This document shows positions 3,696 through 60,803 of a DNA stretch of 64,000 nt, in pieces; within the stretch, counting starts at the first letter, position 1; every line of letters starts with the position of its first letter. The position numbers and the translations under genes are program-made. This stretch comes from Dictyostelium discoideum (lineage: Eukaryota), in NCBI GenBank assembly GCA_000004695.1, contig CM000154.2, positions 2,752,001 through 2,816,000 of the forward strand, given 5' to 3'. The notes under the pieces are model-generated. The model made no database searches, was not told the origin of the DNA, and saw only the letters and a list, made by a program, of their open reading frames with translations.

Positions 3696-6600
3696 ATGAA
3701 TAAAAAATTTATTTTATTATTTATATTTTTATTATTTTCACTGATAAAAAGTGAAAATATCATAATTATAAATAATGAAACTTTTTTAAATCAAACAAAT
3801 TTAATTTTAAATTCATATTATTCACTAAATGATAATATTTTCAAAACTTCAATAATAAATAATGAATTAATATTCCAAGATTCAAGTATAACATTTTTAA
3901 ATCAACATGAAAAAACATCAATTTACAAAGAAGATTTATTAATTAAAAATGGAGAATATCAATTAAATGGTAAATCAACAATTCCAATAATTTTTATAAG
4001 TTTACAACAAATTTTAAATTCAATAAATCCAGTATTGGAATTATCAAATATTGAACCAATAACCAAAATTACAGCAATTGTAAATTCTTATGATGGTAAT
4101 GTGATTGTAGAAGGTTATGAAAGAATTCCAATTTTTTATAATGAATTACAAAATAAAGTTGAATTTTATCAATCAATTTCAGATATTATTGCTCATATGA
4201 TTATTGATTCAATTAAACCAAACCTTGTTTCAAAAAATAAAGATAGTTTATTTCAAAATTATGATTTAACAATTAACGATTGGGAAGAATCAATATCATT
4301 TTTAAAAGGTTTTAAGAATTTTTTTTCAATTTTAATTAAAAAGGTAATTAATCATTTAAAAAAAAAAAAAAAAAACTAAAATGATTATGGATAAATTATT
4401 AATTAATTTTTTTTTTTTTTTTTTTTCTATTTTGTTATTTCCCATACCTATAGATTGCATTCCCAAAATTATCAGATTCTGTAACTGAATCAATCTATAA
4501 TGATAAATCAAATTCATACATAAACATTAAACATATAAAGTACGTATAAAAATCTGATTTTTAATTTACAAAAAAAAAATATCTTTTCTCAACATAATAA
4601 CTTTTTTTTTCATTTTCGATTTTTCTATTTTTATTTTTTATTATTTTAATTTTTTTTTTTTTTTTTAATTTTTTTTATTTTTTTAATAGGCCAAAAAATA
4701 ATCCCACATTCTCTTCATTATCAATTTCATCAACATTGTTGGATTTATATCAAGGAAATGTTGATAAACAAAATAAACCAGTTTTCTTTGAAAAGATAAC
4801 ATTGTTGTCAATGATTACAAGTTTAAAAAATAAACAAGTTATCGATATTGAATCATTTTCAAAAGTATTATTAGAAAATAATAATTTAGAAATTGGTAAA
4901 TCAATTGAAAATATATTATTTTTAAATAAAATAATTTCAACTTGTTCACTAGTTAATTGTTCAACTAATACATCATCCTCTTCAAGATCAATAAAAGCAA
5001 TTTTAAATCCATCAACATTTAACAATACAATTTCACAATGTATTTATTATGATAAAACTAGAAATCAATATTATGATTTAACTCCATTAATGTTGTATGT
5101 ATTTATATATTTTTAAAATAGTATCAATAATAATAGGAATATTGAATAATATAATATTAATATTTTTATTATTAAATTATATATTATATTATTCAATATT
5201 ATTAGACCATCAAATCAATTTTATAATGTAACTAAAGCATCAGTTACAGGAGGTGCAGTTTTTTTTAATTTTTGTACGAAAATTACAAAATGTGATTCAA
5301 TTGCATCAACAACCAAACAATCAGTGGCTTGTCAATCAACCATTGAACTAGCTTCTCTTAATCTTGCACATACTACAACTTTTCCAACCACTGATGGTTT
5401 AACACTTGCATATACAGCACCTGCTACAGGTACTTGCTCACCTTCAAGAAAATTGTCATATGTTTTCGTATGTAATCTTGCTCAAGAAATGTTAGCTGAT
5501 GTCACTGTAACTGCCAATGCATGTACTTTTACTCTTACCATTCAAACAAAATATGCATGCAAGAATCAAGCAGTCTTTTATTTAAATGGAGATCTTTATG
5601 ATTTAAGACCATTACAATTGTAAGTTTACACCCCTTTTTTTTTATGATCATAATAAATTATTAATAAAATCTTTATATTATTAGAACATATCCAAAACAA
5701 TTTCAAGTTAGATTAACACCATGGAATTATCCAGCAGGAGTAATTAGATATGTTTATTTCAATATTTTTGCAAAATCTAAAATGTGTGAAAATACAACAA
5801 CTGGATCAAATCATGCATGCTATATCGATAGTACAAATAGTGGAGTGATTGTTCCAATGAAGGAGCCAGTCTATACAATTGAAACTCAAGATTTAATTAA
5901 AATTCAATATTTTAGTACAGCCCCTTATTTTCCAAGTTGCCCAAATCCTGTATTGGAAATTAATATCAAATGTAATCCAACAGTTGATTATCAATTCCCA
6001 AGTTCAGTTTCTTATGAAGATATGTGTAGTTATCCAATTCTTATTATTGAATCAAGATATGCATGTCCAACAATGCGTTTCTTAAATGGTAAACAATTTT
6101 ATAGTTTAGAATCCTTACAAAAACAATCAACTAATCCATATCAAGTAGCATTTGGATCCAATTATAAATTACTTTTTAATTTTGGTGGTATTGTTGATAC
6201 ATGTGTACAAGCTATGCCAGCAACAAATCCAACAAAAAGAATTCAAGCTTGTCAAATTCATAATACCAATCAAACTGATGTTCGTATAATTGGTGTTGTT
6301 AATTTAGGTCCATTCGTTAAATTCTCTTACAATTCAATGACATTAGAGTATTTTACAGAAACATTAACAAGTGAATGTCCAACCAATGGCAATCGTAGAT
6401 CTATTAGATTAGTATTAACCTGTAATCCAACCACAGATTATTTAGTAACTAGTGTAGTCGAAAGTCCATTATGTGTCTTCCAAGTAAATATAGGCTCAAA
6501 GTATGCTTGTGATTCATTGATATTTTTCAATGGGTATAGTTTTACAGATTTAACACCATTGAAATCCCTCCAAAGATACACTGATATCAGTGGTGGTAAC

Positions 6601-9600
6601 ACTCTTACTCGTTTATATTATTCAATTGGTGAAGCTCATCCAAGTTGTTATACACATGCAACTGCCAATTCATCATTAATTTATCAATCATGTACTTTTC
6701 CAAACTCAACAGTTTCACAAATTGGTGGATTAAAGAATAGTTCTTATTCATTTATAAATGGTGGTAAGAGTTTACAAATTACCTATTCATCAGATGTTAG
6801 TAGTAAAGTTAAATGTGGCGTTTCCTCAACCCAAACTTTTAATGCCCTTACATTTCAATGTGATCCAGTAAATGAATTTGTTCAATCCCTATATACTATT
6901 CCAAGTGTTTGCTATTATGAGGTTAAAATTAATTCATCATATGCATGTTCATTTCCAAAACTTGAAGATTCACCCAAAGCTATAACATCAATCTCTCAAC
7001 CAAACGGTTTTGCCGGTGATCAGTTAACCATCAATGGTGTAGCGCTCCATCAAACAGATAAGGTTATTTTCTCTACACTATTATTTGATGGATCAGTTCA
7101 TAATGAAGTTGCAACAATTATTTCAAAAACATCAAATCAAATCATAGTTCAAATACCATATGGTTATAGAGATTCTGTAATTTATCTCATATCTGCACTT
7201 GGAGTAAAAAGTAATAGTGTTCCATTTTATTTTTCTCCAAATGTTGATCTTTTAATTCCAGAATTTGAAATAAATAAAATAAATAAAATTTATTTAATTG
7301 GTAATGGTTTAGGTTCATTATTTTCAGCAGTACCAAGTTATTGGGTAAATGTATATGCCACAAGAAATTTCACAGGAAGATTCAAGAGTGAATTAACTTG
7401 TGTTTTTGATAGATATTGTTCTACAGGTGGATCCCAATTTCAACCTATACCTTTACCAAATGGTCAACCAGGTATAACATGTATTGAAAGTGAATATTAT
7501 TTAAATAATACCTCTCTTAGATCAAATTTAACAGATGTAGTGGTTTGTCTTGAAATTCCTTATAATATTGGTACTGGTACGATTGATGCTATTGTTTTCG
7601 GTCCTGGTAGTCTTTCTCAAGTGTTCTCTTCATCCTATAGGTATAAAGCCCCAACTATTATACCACCAAGTATTGATAGTAATGTTAAATTAGTGGTTCA
7701 AAATGAAATAATTACAATCAAAGGTGCAGGTTTTCCAAATTACTCCTATAATAAATATAGTTCAAATCTTGCATGGGAGAAAAGCTATGTTTCATTTGGA
7801 CCTTCTTATCAATGTTTAAATGTTGATTGGAGAAAAACAAATGAAATCTATTGTAAAATACCACCTGGAATTGGATCAAATCTTTTATTATCAGTTACTG
7901 TTGGTGATATCACCTCTAAAGCCTCTCTAAATACAACAAATAATTATTATATTTCTTATAATACTCCAACTTTAACACCAAATATTTTATTTTCTGGTGA
8001 ACCAAGTACTCCATCTAAAATCACAATCACTGGTAATTATTTTATTCCAATTGAATTAGTGGTTGCTGCAACTAGTACTCCAAGCATAATCAATTCATTG
8101 GAAAATTATATAATGATTGGTAATGGTAGAAAATGTGAAAATGTTCAATGGATTGATATAAATACAGTTATTTGTACTCCACCAATTTCAACAAGTTCAA
8201 ATCTCGATCAGTTATATCCAATCTCTATAACAGTTGGTGGTCAAACATCAATTGGTGGTAATGTAAATTTTAGATATTACAATGCTTCTTGTTTTTTCCC
8301 TTGTAATTCAAAACCAACCGTAAATACTCCTTCAAATTTTGTATCAACTTTATATGAAAATGGAATTTGTTCAAATCAATTAGATAATAATAATATTCCA
8401 AATGGTAAATCAATTCAACAATTAGAACAATTTTTCATTGATAATTGGACACCAAATACAATTAACAATGATTGGAAATCTGGTCAATTTTATAAAACAT
8501 TCTTTAGAGAACCAAAACAAACCATTTCAAGCTTATCTCAATTTATTGTACAACAATCAAATGATTCAATTTGTGCCTACGATAATTTATCAGTTACTCC
8601 ATATATATCAGTTCAAGATTTAATTACAATTAGCAATGATTTAAATAATTTAGTTGAAAATTCATTTAAAACTTTAGAAATCGAAAATGGATTCCAAATT
8701 TCCTATTATAATGTAACAAGCAATTCAAATGGTAATGGTCTTGCAATTGTAAAAAGCAATGATAAATTATGTAGTTTCGTTGAAAGTTCCTATGATGTTC
8801 CAAGTTTAAATCAAGCATTACAATTATGTTTTGAATCTTGCTATTTCTATTTTTGTAATGATACTACTCAAAATTATCAAATATTATTAGCTAATTCAAA
8901 TGATTTAAAAAGTATTCTATTAAAATCTGGTATTTGTTCAAATGATATCGAACAATATAATTTCCAACTATTAGAATCCATACTATCGAATCAATTATTT
9001 TATAATGAATTTGAAAGTGATTGGTCAAGAGGTCCACTTTTAAATTTACTTTCAAATACATCAAAGGCAATCAATCAAATATCACCATTTATCAAATTAA
9101 ATTTTCCATTAACATATAGTTGTATCTATGATACACCATCAGCAAGTAAAATTACAATTTCAAAATTAATAGATATAGTTGATGATTATAGAAGATTAAT
9201 TGTTAATAAAGTTTATAATGAAACTAAGGATTATGGTGGTGGTATTTTGAAATCTTATTTTTTCAAATTAAATAGTGATAGTAATACTAAAGGTCTTGTA
9301 ATAGTTACTCGTGATAATAAGATTTGTAGTATCGTTGATTCTTTATATTCAGATTTTACTTCAGATTCAGTTATTACAACTTGTGATATGATTTACTCTA
9401 TTACATCTGTTCAAGTTATAAACGATTCAGTTAAACCATATAGGGTCAGATTTGAATTACTTGGAAATTTCGTTGGTGATATTAAATTTGGTGATGATCA
9501 AATTTGTAATCTCGTTTCAACAGAATTTACAGGTCTTTATGGATATAGGGAATGTTTATTTGATGATATTAAAAATTCAGCCACATTAACATATCAAGCA

Positions 9601-12600
9601 AATGGTATTACCATAGTCGATGATTTTAGATTTAAATTCCCACAACCAATAATTACAAATATTGAATATTCAACCACACCATTAGTAATTGCAAATTCAG
9701 ATATTACAATCACAGGTTTAAATTTATTTAGAGATAATGATGTAGTGAATTTTAAAAACTTAAAAGTAATGATCAATCAACTTGATGTTACATCAACAAT
9801 TAAAGATTCAACAATAAACCCAACAACTGGTTTTTCAACATTTAAAATCAAAGCAATTGGTAGGGGAGAGGCAAACAGAATCATTGTTTATTCAGATGAT
9901 TTTGAAATTCGAACTAATAAATCAATTATGGGTGTAGATTTTTCTCTTATTTATACTTTAGAATCACCAATTTTATCATCATTATCAAGCACAACAGGTC
10001 AACGTGGTGACATGATTAAATTATTTGGTTATTTCCCACAATGTATTCAATGTAATGAAACCATCATTTTATTTGGTGACAATCAAGTTTCTGATTTTAC
10101 AATTATAAGTTCAACAGAAATTCAAGTTATTGTACCATATGGTTTCGATAAAGTACCCATAATAGTAATGATTAATCAAGTTTTCAATCATGATGATAAT
10201 TGGGTTTATTTTTCATATCCACAACCAGAAATTCATCAAATTATAAAGAGTTCAAGCATTGAAACCTCATCAAATAGTCCATTTTGGGTTTTTGGTATTG
10301 GCTTAAATCCACTTCCAACAAATCCAGATTCATTCTTTACAGCTTCTTTACTATCAACTATTTACGATGCTGATAATGATGTAGATGGTGATAATCTTAA
10401 ATTGGAATGTGAATTTTCAGACTTTTGTTATAGAAACAAAGTTTATTATATTGATGGTGGTGATGGCACTGAAAATAATCAAACAATTCCAAGACCAACT
10501 TCTCAAATTGATCCAAATAATTTTGATCCATGTATAGAGTTGAAATCTCAATATTTTGAGAATGTAGAATTTGATACATATGTTTGTTATTTAATTCCTG
10601 GTATTGGTAAAGATTCTGTTGTTGAAATTCAAATCATTCAAGATAATGTTTCAATTAAAAGTAGTTTCAACTATTCCTATGATTTACCATTAATTAATTC
10701 ACTTGAAATTTTACAAAGTAATGGTAGTGATTCTTCCTCTTCCTCTTCTTCTTCTTCTTTTGAATTAATAAGAAATAGTACAAATGGTGGTTTAAATTTA
10801 ATTATTGATGGTTTAAATTTCCCACCAACCGAAATATTTACATTGTATAGTAATGAAGATATTTTTACAGAAAATGATTGGATTCCAATTGAATGGTCAG
10901 TGAGTAATTTATTAATTGGCGAATTTGGTTGTAAAAATATTAGTTGGATAAATTCAAGCACAATCGAAGCGATTATTCCTCCAGGTGTTGGTAAAAATTT
11001 ATCAGTTTCAGTATTGGTTGGTGGTCAATTACCATCTACCAACACTAATTACTCATATTCATATGATTTACCATCATTGGATAATAAAGAGTATACAGTA
11101 TCAACCGATGGTAATAAATTTATTACAATAACAGGTACAAACTTTGTTCCTCTCGAATTAGCAAAACAATTTAATGAAAATCCAAATCAATATCAAACTG
11201 AAAATTTTGTTGAAATTACTTTTAATAAAAGTCATACACAACATTGTGTCGGTATTAAATGGATAAATTCAACAACATTAGAATGTAAAGTTTTACCAGG
11301 TATTGGAAAGAATCATAGTATATCAGTAACAATTGGTAATCAACATTCAATCTCAAACACAACTTTTTCATATAGCAAACCAATTATACCATCAAATAAA
11401 TTTTACTCATCATCAACTCATGGCAATGATGAAATTACAATTGAAGGTGATAATTTTATACCAAAAGATTTAGTAAATCAATATAACAGAAACAATGAAA
11501 ACATCAATGACAATGGTGAAAAAATTAACAGTATATTCATTGATGATAAAGAATGTACATCAATTGTATGGATTAATTCAAAACAAGTAAAATGTAATGT
11601 ACCAGTTGGTCAAGGAACCAATTTAAAGATTAAGGTTATAGTTGGATCACAAGAAGTAATAAGACCAAATATTTTCTCATATAATCCACCAAAAATTAGC
11701 TCAATTGAACCAACAAAAGGTAGAATAAATATCGATAATCAAATCATCACTATCAAAGGAACAAATTTTGGAGTTTCACCAAAGGTACTCATTGATCAAG
11801 TTGATCAATGTTCAAATGTATCACTCGTTTCAAATGATACTTTACAATGTACATTACCAAAATCAACCAGTGAAGGAATAAAGTCAATTTTAGTACAAGT
11901 TGAAAACCAACGTTCAAATTCAAAAGAATTTGAATACTATGGCCCACCAACAATTGAAAACATTCAAACTCCATCATTTATTTCATTTGATGGCGGTGAT
12001 AGAATAACATTAATAGGTAAAAACTTTTTAGAACATGGTGCTCCAATCGATAATTTAGTTTTGGTATTACAAAATCAAAATAATAATATTTCAATTAATG
12101 CTATAGATGTAAAAAGTACATCAATTGTATTTGAAACTATAGAAGGTTCAGACTATACTAAAATATATATCGATTTAAATGGTCAAATATCAAATAGTGT
12201 TTTCATGTTTTATTCAAATCCAAAAATTACCAATATCACACCACCAAGTGGTCAATACAATCAAGCAAATACAATTGTAATTAGTGGTTATAATCTTGCA
12301 TTGGAAGATCATAAATCAGATTTAAAGATTAAAATTGGTTCAAATAATTGTGGTGATATAGCAATTCAATCATCAGAATCTGTATCATGCTCAGTACCAA
12401 TCGTTACTAAATCAGAATCTGGTACAAAACCTGTTATTCTAACTTTTTCTCATCATCTTTCAACATCTTCAGAATATACTTACACAAAACAAGATAGTGA
12501 AAGTCAAGAAACTAGTGAAAGTCATGAAACAGATTCTACCACCACTACTACCACATTATCAACAACAACAATTTCAACTACCACTGGTGGCTCATCTACA

Positions 12601-15600
12601 ACTACATCAAGTCAATCAACTACTGGCCAATCATCGTCAACATCAACAACTGGAAATCCACCCACAACAATTATTAATACAATTCCATTCGGCTTTGTAT
12701 TTCCCCCACTTCCACCCCTTCCACCAATTCCGATTCCACTTCCACCTCTTCCACCAATTCCAAAAGGAGACTTCCTAAAGTTTGGAGAGTTTAAATTTGG
12801 ACCATTTGATTGGGACTTCCCAGGTACAAATGGAATTGCCTTACCAATTTTACCAATTGGTTTACCAGGTCTTCCTGTTGGTTTAGATTTACCTTCAATG
12901 GGTTATCCATTTGGTTTACCAACAACAGCTCCATGCGCACCAAGAACTCTTAGTTTATTGGCAAGAGCTATTAAATCTGTTGGTGGAATCGTTGGAAGAA
13001 TATTTTCACCACCGGTATTTGATCTTCCTTTCTTTGATCCTTGTAAAGATGATGATGGTACTGATGACAGTGATGACAGTGATGGTAGTGAATATACAAC
13101 CTACAATTCAGCTTCAACAACTACAACTGTTGGTTCAACTACAACTAGTGGATCAACAACAACTGGAGGAGAATCAACAACTGGAGGATCAACAACAACT
13201 GGTGGAGAATCAACAACTGGAGGACCAACAGCAACTGGTGGAGAATCAACAACTGGAGGATCAACAACAACAACTGGAGGAGAATCAACGACTACAACTG
13301 GTGGAGAATCTTCAACGACTGGTGGTGAAACTCCAACACCATCAATAACCCCAACTCCAACACCAACAATAACACCTATTCCTCTTGACTCATCCACTGT
13401 ACTTTGTAACTATAATGCTGATCAAACTATCTTAACAATTTTAAACAATGGCTTAAATAGAGTTTGTTGTACTGATGAAAAAGAATCAAGCTTCTGTTAT
13501 TTTGAAAGTATAGAATGTAGAAAAAATAAGCAAAACAACAATATTTCATGTTTGAGCTATCCATTAGGAGGTGAAGCAATTGATTTCGATGAAAGTGTTA
13601 AATGTTATATTGCAAGTGAAACCGTATCATGTTTGTTATCAATTTTAGATCCACTTTCAATTCCAGAACCAATATTACCAAATCAAAATTTACAATGTTT
13701 CATCCACACTAATGAAACATATCCAAGTATTTCCATTAAAAATATTAGATCTAATACCTCTTATATTGGTGATGATAATTCAGTTACTCAAAATAGCTTC
13801 TCTTCTGAGCATAAATGTGTTATAAATACTTTAAACAATACAATTGATTGTTCCGATGTAAATAATTTAGAGCCAACCTTAACATTTAACAAATCATTTA
13901 AAGTATTTATCGATAATAAAATGAATTGTTTAATTGAAAATCCATTTTCATCTGAAACAGGTTCAAGTGATAATAGTTCAAACTCCTCAAGTGATTCAAA
14001 TTCATCAAGTGATAATAGTTCAAACTCTTCCTCAAGCAATTCAAACTCATCTTCCGAATATTCATCTTCAGGTTCAAATTCATCCTCATCTTCAAGTGGT
14101 AGCACCTCAAGTTCATCATCATCAAACAATAGTAGCTCAAACTCATCGTCAAGTGACAGTGGTTCAAATTCTTCATTAGAAAATAGTAGCAGTAATAATA
14201 ATTCAAATTCATCATCAAGTGATAACGGCTCAAACTCTTCCTCAAGTAATTCAAACTCATCTTCTGAATATTCATCTTCGGGTTCAAATCCATCATCATC
14301 TTCAAGTGGTAGCACCTCAAGTTCATCATCAACAAACAATAGTAGCTCAAACTCTTCATCAAGTGACAGTGGTTCAAACTCTTCGTCAGGAAATAGTAGC
14401 GGTAGTAGTTCAAATTCATCTTCAAGTTCAAACTCGTCAACATCATCAAGTGAAACACAAAATAGCTCAGAATCTTATGAAAATAGTATAAAGTGTAATT
14501 TCGATACCAACAAAACTACTCTATTAATTGAAAATATTTTGAATCATTCAATATCATGCTCTGATGAATTCAATAATAATTTCACATCCACTGCTCAAAT
14601 TACATGTGAAATATTATTAAATTATAATAATAATACAAATAATTTCTATTCCAATTGCTCTACAAGCGAGAATGAATCCTACATACTTGGTCAATCCATT
14701 AAATGCTCAATTGATGAATATTTGACTTGTTCATTAAATTCACCAACTATTAACAACAATAGTAGCAGTATCAATGGTAGTAGTGGTATTAGTAGTAGTG
14801 ATAGTAGCGTTAACAATAGTACAAGTAGTGACAACAACAACAATAACAATAGCAATAATACTAGTATAGACTCATCTAATAGTAAATCAACAATTTCAAT
14901 CATCTATGATATTGTAGATAAAAGTATGGTTGTAGAAAATCAAGACAAAGAAGAGATCATATGTTTTGGTGATTATACATCAATATTAATTTATTCTGAT
15001 GATTTTGGTTGTTCGATCGTTATGATAAATGGAACAAATTTAATTAAATGTTCAAATAATAATACAGAAACTATGGAAGAGTTAACCTTTTATCAATCAG
15101 TAGAATGTAAAATTGATGATTCAACTCAATCATATTCACTAGTTATTCCGTCACCACCAATTGTTGATCAAGTTATAGAGTGCCATTTCAATTTAAATCG
15201 TACTACACTTGATATTGAAAATAATGGTAGTCATGTTATCACATGCAGTGACAATTTAAATTCTCAAAGATTCAACTTCTCCAAAGGTATCGGTTGTATG
15301 ACTAATGAAACAACAAATCAAATATCTTGTTTTAGTGAAAATCAAACTGCTTTTTTCAATCAATCAGTATCATGCTCATTAAACAAATATATGACATGCT
15401 CTTTAGATGTTGTTTCATTATCATCATCTTCCTCTTCATCTTCATCCTCGTCTGTTAACGGTGGCAATAATTCATCAACACCAACAGTGTCAATGTCATT
15501 AAACTCTTCCACATCAGATTCATCAACATCGGCCTCTTCAATGTCATCATCATCCTCCTCTTCAATAGAACCTAATGAATATGTAATTACTAGTAAATTT

Positions 15601-15924
15601 GATATTATCAACAATAGATTAACACTTGAAAATCTATATAACAAAACAATCAGCTGTATTGGTGACCGAAATGCTACCTATACTCTATATTCAAACTTTA
15701 GTTGCACAATTGTTCCATTCAATCAAACAGAAATTATCATAGAATGTTATAATGAAAACTCTTCAATTTTAACATTCACAGAATCTTTTGAATGTAATAT
15801 TGGTTTTTCATTGAAATATTCATTAACTATTCCACAAACTACCCCAACTGATGATGATATTAATAGAAGCAAAAGTAGTATCAATAACTCAAGTCACACC
15901 AATAATAAATCTCAAGAATTTTAA
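3696..15924 (+). CDS. Giant secreted protein (~3,900 aa) with multiple IPT/TIG-like domains, N-terminal MRH-like Cys modules, a Pro-rich segment and mucin-like Ser/Thr tracts. Proposed exons are 3696-4343, 4454-4539 (86-bp microexon), 4690-5094, 5206-5619 and 5685-15924.
   Basis: There is a signal peptide at the ATG at 3696 (MNKKFILLFIFLLFSLIKSENIII). Donors are AAG|GTAATT (4344), AA|GTACGT (4540), TT|GTATGT (5095) and TT|GTAAGT (5620). Acceptors are CTATAG| (4453), AATAG| (4689), ATTAG| (5205) and TTAG| (5684). The phases are consistent (0, 2, 2, 2) and join into the 10-kb ORF 5782-15924. IPT/TIG-like repeats recur about 12 times (ITIKGAGF, ITITGNYF, ITITGTNF, ITIEGDNF, ITIKGTNFG, ITLIGKNF, IVISGYNL). 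A Cys module of the form CNPT.DY...C....YAC occurs four times. Confidence 0.7.
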
Positions 15925-16639
15925 TTTTTCTTAAAATGCCAAACCAATCTAACAATTTATAATTAAATAAATCTATTGATAGAAATTTTTTTTATTAATT
16001 ATCTAAAATATTGGTAGATTTATGTCCCAATTAAGTCTACAGCAAAAATTTATTTCTTTGTTAATTATTTTTATTTTCAAAATTCTTTTTATTGGATATT
16101 AACAAATTATTTTACAATCCAAGTATATTTTTTTTTTTTTTTTTTTTTTTTGTATTGATTAATTACAGTTTTTCAAGAAAAGGAAAATAATAAATAATTA
16201 TAATTTTTTTTTTTTTTTAAATATTAATTTATTATATGCTGAATCTTTAAGCAATAATAGTTTTTTTTTTAGTTTATATTTTGTTTTAAAATTTATATTT
16301 ATATGAATTGAATCAACAATTACTCTATTTGGTAGTATTGTGCTTGATAAACAATAATCTTTTATAATTTGGTTTTTAATATTTTTAATTTTTTTGATGT
16401 ATTCGATTTTTTAACAAATTGGGAGGGTATCTTTTGATGATGCTAATTTATAATTTTTAACTTTATTTATATAATCCAAGGTCGCTGATTCATACCATTT
16501 TTAAGAATTATATCATTGTATAATGTTTTGGCTTGGATTTGGTTGTCGTTGTGGAGTTTGTCCTAGGTGTGCAAGTCAATCTATTTACCACTAATTTTTG
16601 CATATCTATATGTGTATTATAATTTACAATTTTAAAAAT

Positions 16640-16712
16640 GCCCAGATAGCTCAGTCGGTAGAGCGCAAGGCTTTTAACCTTGTGGTCGGGGGTTCGAGCC
16701 CCCCTTTGGGCG
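16640..16712 (+). tRNA. tRNA-Lys (anticodon UUU), 73 nt, no encoded CCA
   Basis: The sequence forms a cloverleaf. The acceptor stem GCCCAGA pairs with TTTGGGC (one G-U pair). The D-arm is GCTC-AGTCGGTA-GAGC. The anticodon stem CAAGG/CCTTG encloses the loop CTTTTAA (anticodon TTT). The T-arm is GGGGG-TTCGAGC-CCCCC, followed by a discriminator G. Confidence 0.9.
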
Positions 16713-16832
16713 AAATTTTTAAATTAATATCGTTGATCGAGGGTTCAACTCCCAGTTTAATGTAATGCCAATATTGATCATAATAAATAAAGGAACACAC
16801 AATTAATATTATATGAATGCTGTAAAGCGTGA

Positions 16833-55298: not shown

Positions 55299-56075
<777 letters not shown>

Positions 56076-56141
56076 TATTCATTAACTTTATTAATTAATT
56101 GGTACTGTGTGGTGACTGTAATTTGAAATTGACTGTAAATG

Positions 56142-56188
<47 letters not shown>

Positions 56189-56376
56189 TTTTTGAAAAAA
56201 AAAAAAAAAAAAAAAATAAAATAAAATTATTGGTAAAAAAAAAAAAAATATCTGCGTAGTGGGGGATTTCTGATTAAAAATCGATTTTTTTTTTTTTTGT
56301 TGTTACTAATTCCAAATTATTGTTATTATTATTATTCATTTTTTTTTTTATATTTTATTTTTTATTTTATTAAATA

Positions 56377-57546
56377 ATGATTGAAACAGAAATTACAAAA
56401 CCAAAATATGAAATTCCATTTTCTAAAATGCATGGAGCAGGTAATGACTTTATAGTTTTTGAAAATAATAAAGTTAAAAGATTAGATGGTTCAGAAAATG
56501 AAATTACTTTAAAAGAACTAAAAGAGATTACATTAAAATTATCACATAGAAAATTAGGTGTTGGATTTGATCAAGCAATTATTATAAATAATAATCCAAA
56601 AGTTTTAAAATCTGCTCATTATGAAATGATTGTAATTAATTCTGATGGTGAGCAAGTAAGTAAATAATAAATAAATAAATAAGTAATATATAACACCCTT
56701 TATTTTTTTATTTTATTAATTTTTAATTTTTAAAAAAAAAAAAAAAACAAATAGGCATCAATGTGTGGAAATGGTGTTAGATGTTTTTCAAAATATATTA
56801 TTGATAATTGTATTGAGTCAAAGAGTTTAAATGGTACACCAAAATTAGTTGATGGAGGAGATATTGAACAAAAGATTGAAACATTAGCAGGATTAGTTAT
56901 AACATATCCAAAGATTACACACCATTTAAATCAATATAATTTAATGATGATTAAAGTTAATATGAATAATGCATTAGTATTAAAGACAAATCAATATAAG
57001 GATGACGAATTTGAAAATGTTTTAAATAAAAAAACAACAAATGAAAAAGCATATATTTACACAATTAAAGATTTATCATTACCACAATGCGATCAGTTAG
57101 AGTGTGTATTAGTGTCAATGGGTAATCCACATTGTGTAATATTTTTAGAAAGAAATATAGAGTTGGGTAATCTCTCCTCAACTGGTGTTGATTCAGCCTC
57201 AGATTTATCAATGATGAAAATTGATGAGATTGCAACTAAACTTCAAAAATTACCATTATTTAAAGATGGTTGTAATGTTGAGTTTGTAAGTACAAATAAT
57301 TCAAAATTAACAAATCGTGTAATTTCAAGAGTATTTGAACGTGGTGCTGGTGAGACATTAGCTTGCGGTACTGGTGCTTGTGGTGTTGCTGTTGCCTCAA
57401 TCCTCATGTCATATTGTACTCAAGATAAAGAAGTTACTGTATCAATGCCTGGTGGTGATTTATTAATTCAATGGTCAAGTGAAACTGGTGAAGTTTTTAA
57501 AACTGGTCCAGCTTGTACTGTATTTAATTCAAATATTAAATTATAA
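56377..57546 (+). CDS. dapF: Diaminopimelate epimerase (DapF family). It has 2 exons, 56377-56655 and 56755-57546, giving ~356 aa.
   Basis: The N-terminal signature is FSKMHGAGNDFIVFEN…LGVGFDQAIII. The first catalytic Cys lies in MCGNGVRCFSKYI. The block SMGNPHCVIF follows. The second catalytic Cys lies in RVFERGAGETLACGTGACGVAVASI. The C-terminal blocks are MPGGDLLIQW and TGPACTVFNSNI. The donor is CAA|GTAAGT and the acceptor is AAATAG|, phase 0. Confidence 0.85.
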
Positions 57547-57611
57547 AATAAATAAATATATAGTTTCATTTCTTATTATATCATATCATATTTTATTTTA
57601 TTTTATTTATT

Positions 57612-58612
<1,001 letters not shown>

Positions 58613-59195: not shown

Positions 59196-60803
<1,608 letters not shown>

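Follow-up and report, generated by a model that had tools for sequence, protein, structure and literature searches.

Diaminopimelate epimerase (DapF) structures from H. influenzae (1GQZ, 2GKE), E. coli (4IJZ), Anabaena (9MRO) and Arabidopsis (3EJX) have a two-domain DAP_epimerase fold in common. In the 2025 structure of the Anabaena enzyme, the proximal amine of diaminopimelate (DAP) is contacted by Asn13 and Cys75, and the proximal carboxylate is held by the backbone NH groups of Gly76, Asn77, Gly225 and Thr226. The distal amine is contacted by Asn66, Glu215 and Arg216, and the distal carboxylate is held by Arg216, Asn66, Asn164 and Asn197; the Asn/Asn/Asn/Glu/Arg set of the distal site recognizes the second L-amino-acid end of DAP (PMC12039745).

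Terminal remnants of the DAP pathway in phagotrophic protists have already been published (PMC3846528, PMC7971027). Trypanosomatids, as bacteria-associated eukaryotes, have the terminal DAP steps without the upstream pathway, with DapF and LysA in Herpetomonas muscarum and LysA alone in others. Both types were shown to grow on DAP in place of lysine (PMC3846528). We propose this functional model for Dictyostelium by analogy. In the choanoflagellates Monosiga and Salpingoeca, which are phagotrophs without a plastid, dapF has been flagged as derived from bacteria or algae (PMC7971027; Sun and Huang 2011). These organisms are reported to possess asd, lysA/lysC and further genes of the DAP pathway, suggesting de novo synthesis (PMC7971027), whereas only the terminal DAP steps are reported in Dictyostelium.

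A 64-kb stretch of Dictyostelium discoideum DNA (the window; GC 23%, AT-rich and Dictyostelium-like) contains the DapF-family gene DDB_G0289455 (Table 1). The ATG at 56377 opens a 96-codon ORF (56377-56667), with an in-frame stop just past the GTAAGT at 56656; the frame is regained by the AG at 56753-56754, and a second ORF ends at 57546. Joining exon 1 (93 codons) to exon 2 (263 codons plus stop) gives a 356-aa protein that matches XP_636208.1 (EAL62707.1, UniProt Q54HH7; D. discoideum AX4) exactly. The gene model of the first-pass annotation is therefore the same as the public one; the GTAAGT…AG intron measures 99 nt (56656-56754). The DNA of the gene is identical in assembly GCA_054883475.1. 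The intron lies three codons 5' of the catalytic Cys97 codon and has a GC content of 9%, compared with 27.8% for the coding sequence. The upstream intergenic region is the presumed promoter region common to DapF and the divergent LSM11-like gene. Scans of the window for tRNA and Rfam families found nothing bearing on the DapF locus.

Table 1. The DDB_G0289455 locus, in positions of the window
Feature	Position	Strand	Remarks
LSM11-like gene	55299-56072	minus	transcribed divergently from DapF
Intergenic region	56073..56376		304 nt, rich in A/T homopolymers; between DapF and the LSM11-like gene
Exon 1, DDB_G0289455	56377..56655	+	codons 1-93; carries GAGNDF, Gln66, Asn88
Asn23 codon (in GAGNDF)	56443-56445	+	exon 1
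Intron, spliceosomal, phase 0	56656..56754	+	99 nt, GTAAGT...AATAG, 9% GC
Exon 2	56755..57546	+	codons 94-356 and stop TAA at 57544-57546; carries Cys97, Gly98, Asn99, Asn217, His219, Asn267, Glu288, Arg289, Cys297, Gly298, Thr299
Cys97 codon	56764-56766	+	exon 2
Cys297 codon	57364-57366	+	exon 2
Short 3' spacer	57547..57611		followed by the convergent minus-strand gene
Downstream convergent gene	ORF 57612-58238; called L001:11236-12236	minus	249 aa, without Pfam match

The gene is already known, as NCBI and UniProt contain the identical protein and both the model and the family assignment are public. XP_636208.1 is labeled "hypothetical protein DDB_G0289455"; its orthologs are labeled diaminopimelate epimerase, and tables derived from dictyBase already use that name. 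Enzyme assays or genetics for the protein were not found in the searched literature, and a full-text search on DDB_G0289455 and DDB_G0270030 found no mention of either.

Both catalytic cysteine motifs and the NDF signature of DapF had been described as intact, and all three were recovered here: GAGNDF at aa 20-25, MCGNGVRCF with Cys97, and ACGTGACG with Cys297. Pfam PF01678 (DAP_epimerase) matched in two stretches with E=4e-40 and 137 bits (cut-off 34.7). The NCBIfam equivalog TIGR00652 gave 191.2 bits against a cut-off of 114.65, spanning aa 14-354, while the model for the Chlamydia-type bifunctional DapF/glutamate racemase, NF038284, failed (62 bits against a cut-off of 350). The best solved relatives by sequence were the Arabidopsis chloroplast DapF (131 bits), Anabaena DapF (9MRO) and H. 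influenzae DapF.

The active site was aligned with E. coli DapF from NC_000913.3 and with PDB sequences taken out of HMMER alignments. DDB_G0289455 keeps all 14 active-site positions of the E. coli, H. influenzae and Anabaena enzymes (N23, Q66, N88, C97, G98, N99, N217, H219, N267, E288, R289, C297, G298 and T299). Cys97 and Cys297 align with the catalytic pair Cys73/Cys217 of E. coli and H. influenzae DapF and are present in all full-length amoebozoan orthologs, the lone exception (P0013) being without the whole segment. The proximal carboxylate/amine cradle (Asn11, Gly74, Asn75, Gly218, Ser/Thr219) is matched by N23, G98, N99, G298 and T299, with Thr at the Ser219 position as in plant, cyanobacterial and Firmicute-type DapF. 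The distal-site set (Asn64, Asn157, Asn190, Glu208, Arg209) is identical (N88, N217, N267, E288, R289). Thus, DDB_G0289455 has the Cys/Cys pair and all proximal and distal DAP-binding residues in common with canonical DapF, including every contact residue assigned in the Anabaena enzyme. By every sequence and structure criterion testable, it is a member of the DapF family, and its identity as a predicted diaminopimelate epimerase (EC 5.1.1.7) is well supported.

An AlphaFold2 model calculated with an 88-sequence alignment had a pLDDT of 92.6 and a pTM of 0.90. The best 26 Foldseek matches in the PDB (E ~1e-27; target-normalized TM-score, TMt, 0.70-0.87) were DapF chains save for three chains of O-ureidoserine racemase, and the top DapF matches were those of Arabidopsis, Anabaena, P. 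aeruginosa, B. anthracis, E. coli and H. influenzae (TMt 0.72-0.87). The protein is ~75 residues longer than canonical DapF because of surface insertions at aa 33-40, 118-130, 186-198 and 227-243 and an N-terminal extension of ~10 aa. These extra residues are a caveat on the activity of the predicted enzyme. No targeting peptide or long presequence is evident, and the protein is therefore probably cytosolic. Unlike canonical DapF, it is encoded by a spliced nuclear gene without a plastid transit peptide, and Dictyostelium, unlike the canonical hosts, is not known to make DAP de novo.

Word-indexed protein searches (best 120 matches each) gave, among the matches listed, orthologs in every dictyostelid genome sampled at 37-97% identity, together with the paralog DDB_G0270030 (52%) and a protein of Clastostelium recurvatum (38%). 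After the amoebozoan matches, the list leveled off into bacterial and metagenomic DapF at ~35% identity. With the Clastostelium protein as query, dictyostelids came first (227-241 bits), barely over bacteria of several phyla (207-226 bits, 40-44% identity). The best bacterial matches listed were scattered over Firmicutes, Deltaproteobacteria, Bacteroidetes, Planctomycetes and Betaproteobacteria. An exhaustive HMMER profile search over 1.84 billion representatives brought in Ceratiomyxa fruticulosa as well as a divergent third lineage of dictyostelids; Cuscuta, a plant, and Triparma, an alga, were only among its ordinary matches. With names for 20 of 150 representatives, and hence incomplete sampling, the named eukaryotic relatives are Dictyostelia, Clastostelium, Ceratiomyxa and the plastid-type Cuscuta and Triparma, a patchy distribution that plastid ancestry does not explain.

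A tree was calculated by neighbor joining, a simple method (193 sequences, 268 trimmed columns, Kimura distances, 200 bootstraps). Dictyostelia (the orthologs plus the paralogous clade B) received 97% bootstrap, and Dictyostelia with Clastostelium and Ceratiomyxa 84%, falling to 41% once the dictyostelid clade C joins. The nearest relatives outside the amoebozoan clade are diverse bacteria at ~35-44% identity, and E. coli-type enzymes are the most distant in the tree. Three insertion sites are common to Clastostelium and dictyostelid DapF, which supports common ancestry. A plastid or plant-like origin was weighed, since no PDB sequence matches better than Arabidopsis DapF; it was dropped, as plant sequences cluster with the cyanobacterial 9MRO and the amoebae stay apart. 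We read this as one ancient origin, in the ancestor that Dictyostelia share with Protosporangiida, of an enzyme bacterial in type and not derived from a plastid.

Horizontal acquisition from bacteria, as suggested in the first-pass annotation, is plausible. The amoebozoan proteins form a clade of their own away from plant and cyanobacterial DapF. The nodes tying this clade to any bacteria have 0% bootstrap, and nesting within a particular bacterial clade was not recovered in this tree. Herpetomonas DapF, in contrast, clusters with Bacteroidetes at 99% support, and amoebozoan DapF is independent of it. Any transfer predates the split between Dictyostelia and Protosporangiida.

Array tables of D. 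discoideum list DDB0169465 as "ddcB, putative diaminopimelate decarboxylase" (Sillo et al. 2008, PMC2443395 supplement), and ddcB is also in the file of genes with products in the phagosome proteome (PMC2443395 supplements 1 and 7). In a tree of EC 4.1.1.20 (LysA), Dictyostelium, Polysphondylium and Capsaspora stand beside trypanosomatids and Actinobacteria (Alves et al. 2013, PMC3846528). According to the literature, the decarboxylase that follows DapF is therefore present. With this reported step and two more DapF-family lineages in dictyostelids, the description of DDB_G0289455 as a stand-alone DapF is not supported.

D. discoideum requires lysine in defined medium. Bacteria make LL-DAP as an intermediate of biosynthesis, and in Streptomyces and certain other Gram-positive soil bacteria it is the diamino acid of the cell wall. 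Given the need for lysine, the reported DAP decarboxylase and the bacterial diet, salvage is the most economical role and therefore the most likely one. We consider it fairly probable that DDB_G0289455 is a competent DapF which, together with DAP decarboxylase, salvages DAP of the prey into lysine. Scavenging of prey DAP, a sub-idea of the first-pass annotation, is thus the favored reading, with lysine as the product. Digestion of bacteria would free DAP, and the thiol-thiolate pair of Cys97 and Cys297 would interconvert LL-DAP and meso-DAP independently of PLP, bringing DAP to the meso form. The latter would then be decarboxylated to L-lysine by DAP decarboxylase (ddcB/LysA), such that the two enzymes would make up the final two steps of the pathway, with the upstream part missing. 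LL-DAP could be supplied by biosynthetic pools and by soil actinomycetes such as Streptomyces, whose peptidoglycan is of the LL-DAP type. The common ancestor of Dictyostelia and Protosporangiida would have gained the gene or had it already, and purifying selection would have kept it since. We infer the enzymatic activity, the pathway role, the coupling to LysA and the nutritional role.

Some observations stand against lysine salvage. The ddcB mRNA had fallen (log2 -1.68) two hours after cells were moved from axenic medium onto E. coli (PMC2443395), which a simple prey-induced salvage pathway would not predict. In addition, meso-DAP, the main form in Gram-negative prey, reaches lysine without an epimerase; the selective value of DapF therefore rests on sources of LL-DAP. 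DapF and LysA are not genomically linked, and neither LysA nor any other DAP-pathway gene was found beside DapF in the nine dictyostelid loci examined. Searches of the accessible literature found no Dictyostelium data on DAP replacing lysine or on DAP label in lysine, and no usable statement on lysine auxotrophy.

Alternatively, the protein might be a true DAP epimerase with a catabolic or detoxifying role, equilibrating the isomers of prey DAP for another degrading enzyme and not for lysine, which we regard as unlikely. The degrading enzyme would be an aminotransferase, dehydrogenase or oxidase yielding carbon and nitrogen; in the detoxifying variant, DapF would remove a D-center amino acid that is otherwise inert. 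The intact active site suits such a role too, and the decrease of ddcB on bacteria weakens the link to lysine salvage. Dictyostelium also has other D-amino-acid enzymes: the D-aspartate oxidase ddo-1 is listed as bacteria-induced (PMC2443395 supplement), and a serine racemase gene lies ~7 kb downstream of DapF. Nevertheless, a DAP aminotransferase or dehydrogenase was neither reported nor seen for Dictyostelium, in which LysA is the sole DAP-consuming enzyme reported. The proximity of serine racemase is not kept in D. purpureum, which retains the LSM11-DapF-polyubiquitin synteny without a nearby PALP-domain gene, and a functional tie between the two genes was therefore dropped as a probable coincidence.

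A shift of substrate, which would make DDB_G0289455 a PLP-independent racemase for another amino acid, corresponds to the "repurposed function" of the first-pass annotation and appears rather improbable. DapF relatives with new substrates are known, namely the O-ureidoserine racemase DcsC, the histidine racemase HisR, the 2,4-diaminobutyrate racemase PddB and the Chlamydia DapF/glutamate racemase, and are documented (PMC11602996, PMC8225329, PMC5885031). DcsC (7vdy) is a close structural match, amoebozoan-specific insertions are present, and de novo DAP synthesis is not known in D. discoideum. Against this, every distal-end DAP contact is conserved, the TIGR00652 score is far over its cut-off while that of NF038284 is far below, and Arabidopsis DapF is matched better than DcsC (131 and 98 bits, respectively). 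With all DAP-contacting residues intact, nothing in the sequence demands a new substrate, and the intact distal site makes the shift unlikely for this protein.

The substitutions expected of a changed substrate sit instead in the paralogs. Dictyostelids carry two further DapF-family lineages, clade B (DDB_G0270030, Q55CJ7) and clade C (for example KYQ91803.1 of T. lacteum and KAF2074814.1 of P. violaceum), which have the family assignment, both catalytic cysteines and most binding residues in common with DDB_G0289455. The clade B intron lies within one or two nt of the DDB_G0289455 intron site. In clade B the Asn157 equivalent is replaced by Gly or Val, and the D. discoideum copies also have Gln in place of His159. 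In clade C, Glu208 is replaced by Gln in every member having the position and Gly74 is often Ala, Ser or Thr; its members contain long low-complexity inserts. By these residues, DDB_G0289455 is the conservative copy among the dictyostelid DapF lineages, while clades B and C could be candidate new PLP-independent racemases, perhaps with other D-amino acids from prey as substrates. A D. discoideum "diaminopimelate epimerase", DDB0190752, was differentially expressed between infections with P. aeruginosa PAO1 and PA14 (Carilla-Latorre et al. 2008, PMC2474670); judging from the ID numbering, it is probably the paralog DDB_G0270030.

It is very unlikely that DDB_G0289455 is a leftover of a once complete DAP lysine pathway, with little or no metabolic role or a non-catalytic one. 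The 0% bootstrap of the bacterial sister is compatible with an ancient complete pathway followed by loss, and E. coli DapF is reported to moonlight with RppH (PMC4227774; structure 6d13). However, the gene is under purifying selection, with a dN/dS of 0.13-0.14 against D. firmibasis and D. citrinum at a dS of ~0.4, and the catalytic residues are invariant across Dictyostelia and Protosporangiida, which indicates selection on catalysis. Moreover, every dictyostelid genome sampled has kept DapF and also duplicated it.

The first-pass annotation regarded the gene as resident on the grounds of its intron and host-like codon usage, and both points were corroborated, with synteny and purifying selection in further support. 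Codon usage (RSCU) correlates with that of the other long ORFs of the window at r=0.96, compared with r=-0.21 for E. coli dapF, and GC3 is 11.5%. The flanks are ordinary Dictyostelium genes, the LSM11-like gene upstream and a polyubiquitin gene downstream. Both neighbors are found at the D. purpureum locus; one of them is seen in D. firmibasis (LSM11-like) and the other in D. citrinum (polyubiquitin). The orthologous LSM11-like neighbors in D. purpureum and D. firmibasis contain PF28412 (LSM11_N) and PF01423 (LSM). A phase-0 intron at the same site, between ...DG(E/S)Q and A(S/T/M)MCGNG, is shared by six dictyostelid species of four genera (D. discoideum, D. firmibasis, D. citrinum, P. violaceum, C. 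fasciculata and H. album). D. purpureum DapF has lost it and has another intron before ACGTG. Bacterial contamination or an assembly artifact, brought to mind by a family that is typically bacterial or plastidial, is thus refuted by the AT-rich spliceosomal intron, the codon usage, the flanking genes and the recurrence of locus and intron in independent assemblies and species, and its probability is negligible.

Salvage and the divergent paralogs together would be a modest advance, unsurprising to specialists; the residual value lies in the salvage hypothesis and in the two divergent lineages as candidate PLP-independent racemases. As a tentative generalization, on the doubtful side, social amoebae and protosteloids may run a DapF/DAP-decarboxylase shunt from DAP to lysine, with clades B and C possibly being new cofactor-independent racemases. 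If true, a eukaryotic predator would obtain an essential amino acid directly from peptidoglycan. If salvage is true, the predator would metabolize a prey-specific cell-wall component, in parallel to trypanosomatids, and this would account for the retention of a bacterial enzyme over hundreds of millions of years without known DAP synthesis.

The D. purpureum orthologue of DapF has lost the intron that its relatives keep ahead of MCGNG, and its own phase-0 intron, 69 nt long, is located directly before the second catalytic motif (ETL|ACGTG). The polyubiquitin gene, the second gene downstream of DapF in D. discoideum, encodes 533 amino acids as tandem ubiquitin repeats, and its synteny with DapF was also found in D. 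purpureum and D. citrinum. On the other side, the 304 intergenic nucleotides that separate DapF from the divergently transcribed LSM11-like gene are filled with extended poly(A) and poly(T) tracts, an arrangement typical of Dictyostelium promoter architecture. The window also carries a tRNA-Lys gene and a very long uninterrupted ORF.

Coordinates of features discussed (L001, D. discoideum DapF locus; L002, D. discoideum GCA_054859355.1 locus; L003, D. purpureum DapF locus)
Feature	Location	Strand	Details
Uninterrupted ORF	window 5781-15921	+	3380 codons
tRNA-Lys(UUU) gene	window 16639-16713	+	ARAGORN; Rfam RF00005, 72.6 bits
Poly(A) and poly(T) runs	window 56145-56345
Polyubiquitin gene	window 59201-60800	+
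Serine racemase gene	L001:18088-19257 (about window 64464-65633, just past the window end)	+	match to PDB 6LUT
DapF orthologue, D. purpureum	L003:8001-9155
Clade B, first tandem copy	L002:6543-7707
Clade B, second tandem copy	L002:8001-9173

In D. discoideum a serine racemase gene lies downstream of DapF, about 6.9 kb past its stop codon; the largest exon of the racemase gene matched PDB 6LUT, 'Probable serine racemase', with 471 bits. This species therefore has two genes of the amino-acid racemase/epimerase kind in close proximity. The arrangement is not kept in D. purpureum, and so the closeness is probably a coincidence.

Relevant to the salvage hypothesis, in which DapF and the putative DAP decarboxylase ddcB would turn prey DAP into lysine, ddcB is on the list of genes with products detected in the Dictyostelium phagosome proteome, and first contact with E. 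coli down-regulated it (PMC2443395, supplementary files 1 and 7). These observations are not easy to reconcile with salvage.

Two further DapF-family lineages were compared by active-site residues. Clade C is a third, divergent DapF-like lineage found across dictyostelids (P0241, P0242 from T. lacteum, 482 aa, P0245 from P. violaceum, 629 aa, and P0403-P0407); no D. discoideum member was among the matches listed. Its proteins contain long low-complexity insertions and keep both cysteines wherever those positions exist. Glu208 is replaced by Gln in all members having that position, and the Gly74 position is often Ala, Ser or Thr.

Clade B is represented by DDB_G0270030/Q55CJ7 (proteins P0126, P0008, P0011 and P0012), and at least one D. 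discoideum strain (assembly GCA_054859355.1) carries two copies of it in tandem. Both catalytic cysteines are kept. Asn157, a ligand of the distal carboxylate of DAP, is replaced by Gly or Val, and His159 by Gln in the D. discoideum copies. The substrate of the clade B proteins may be altered.
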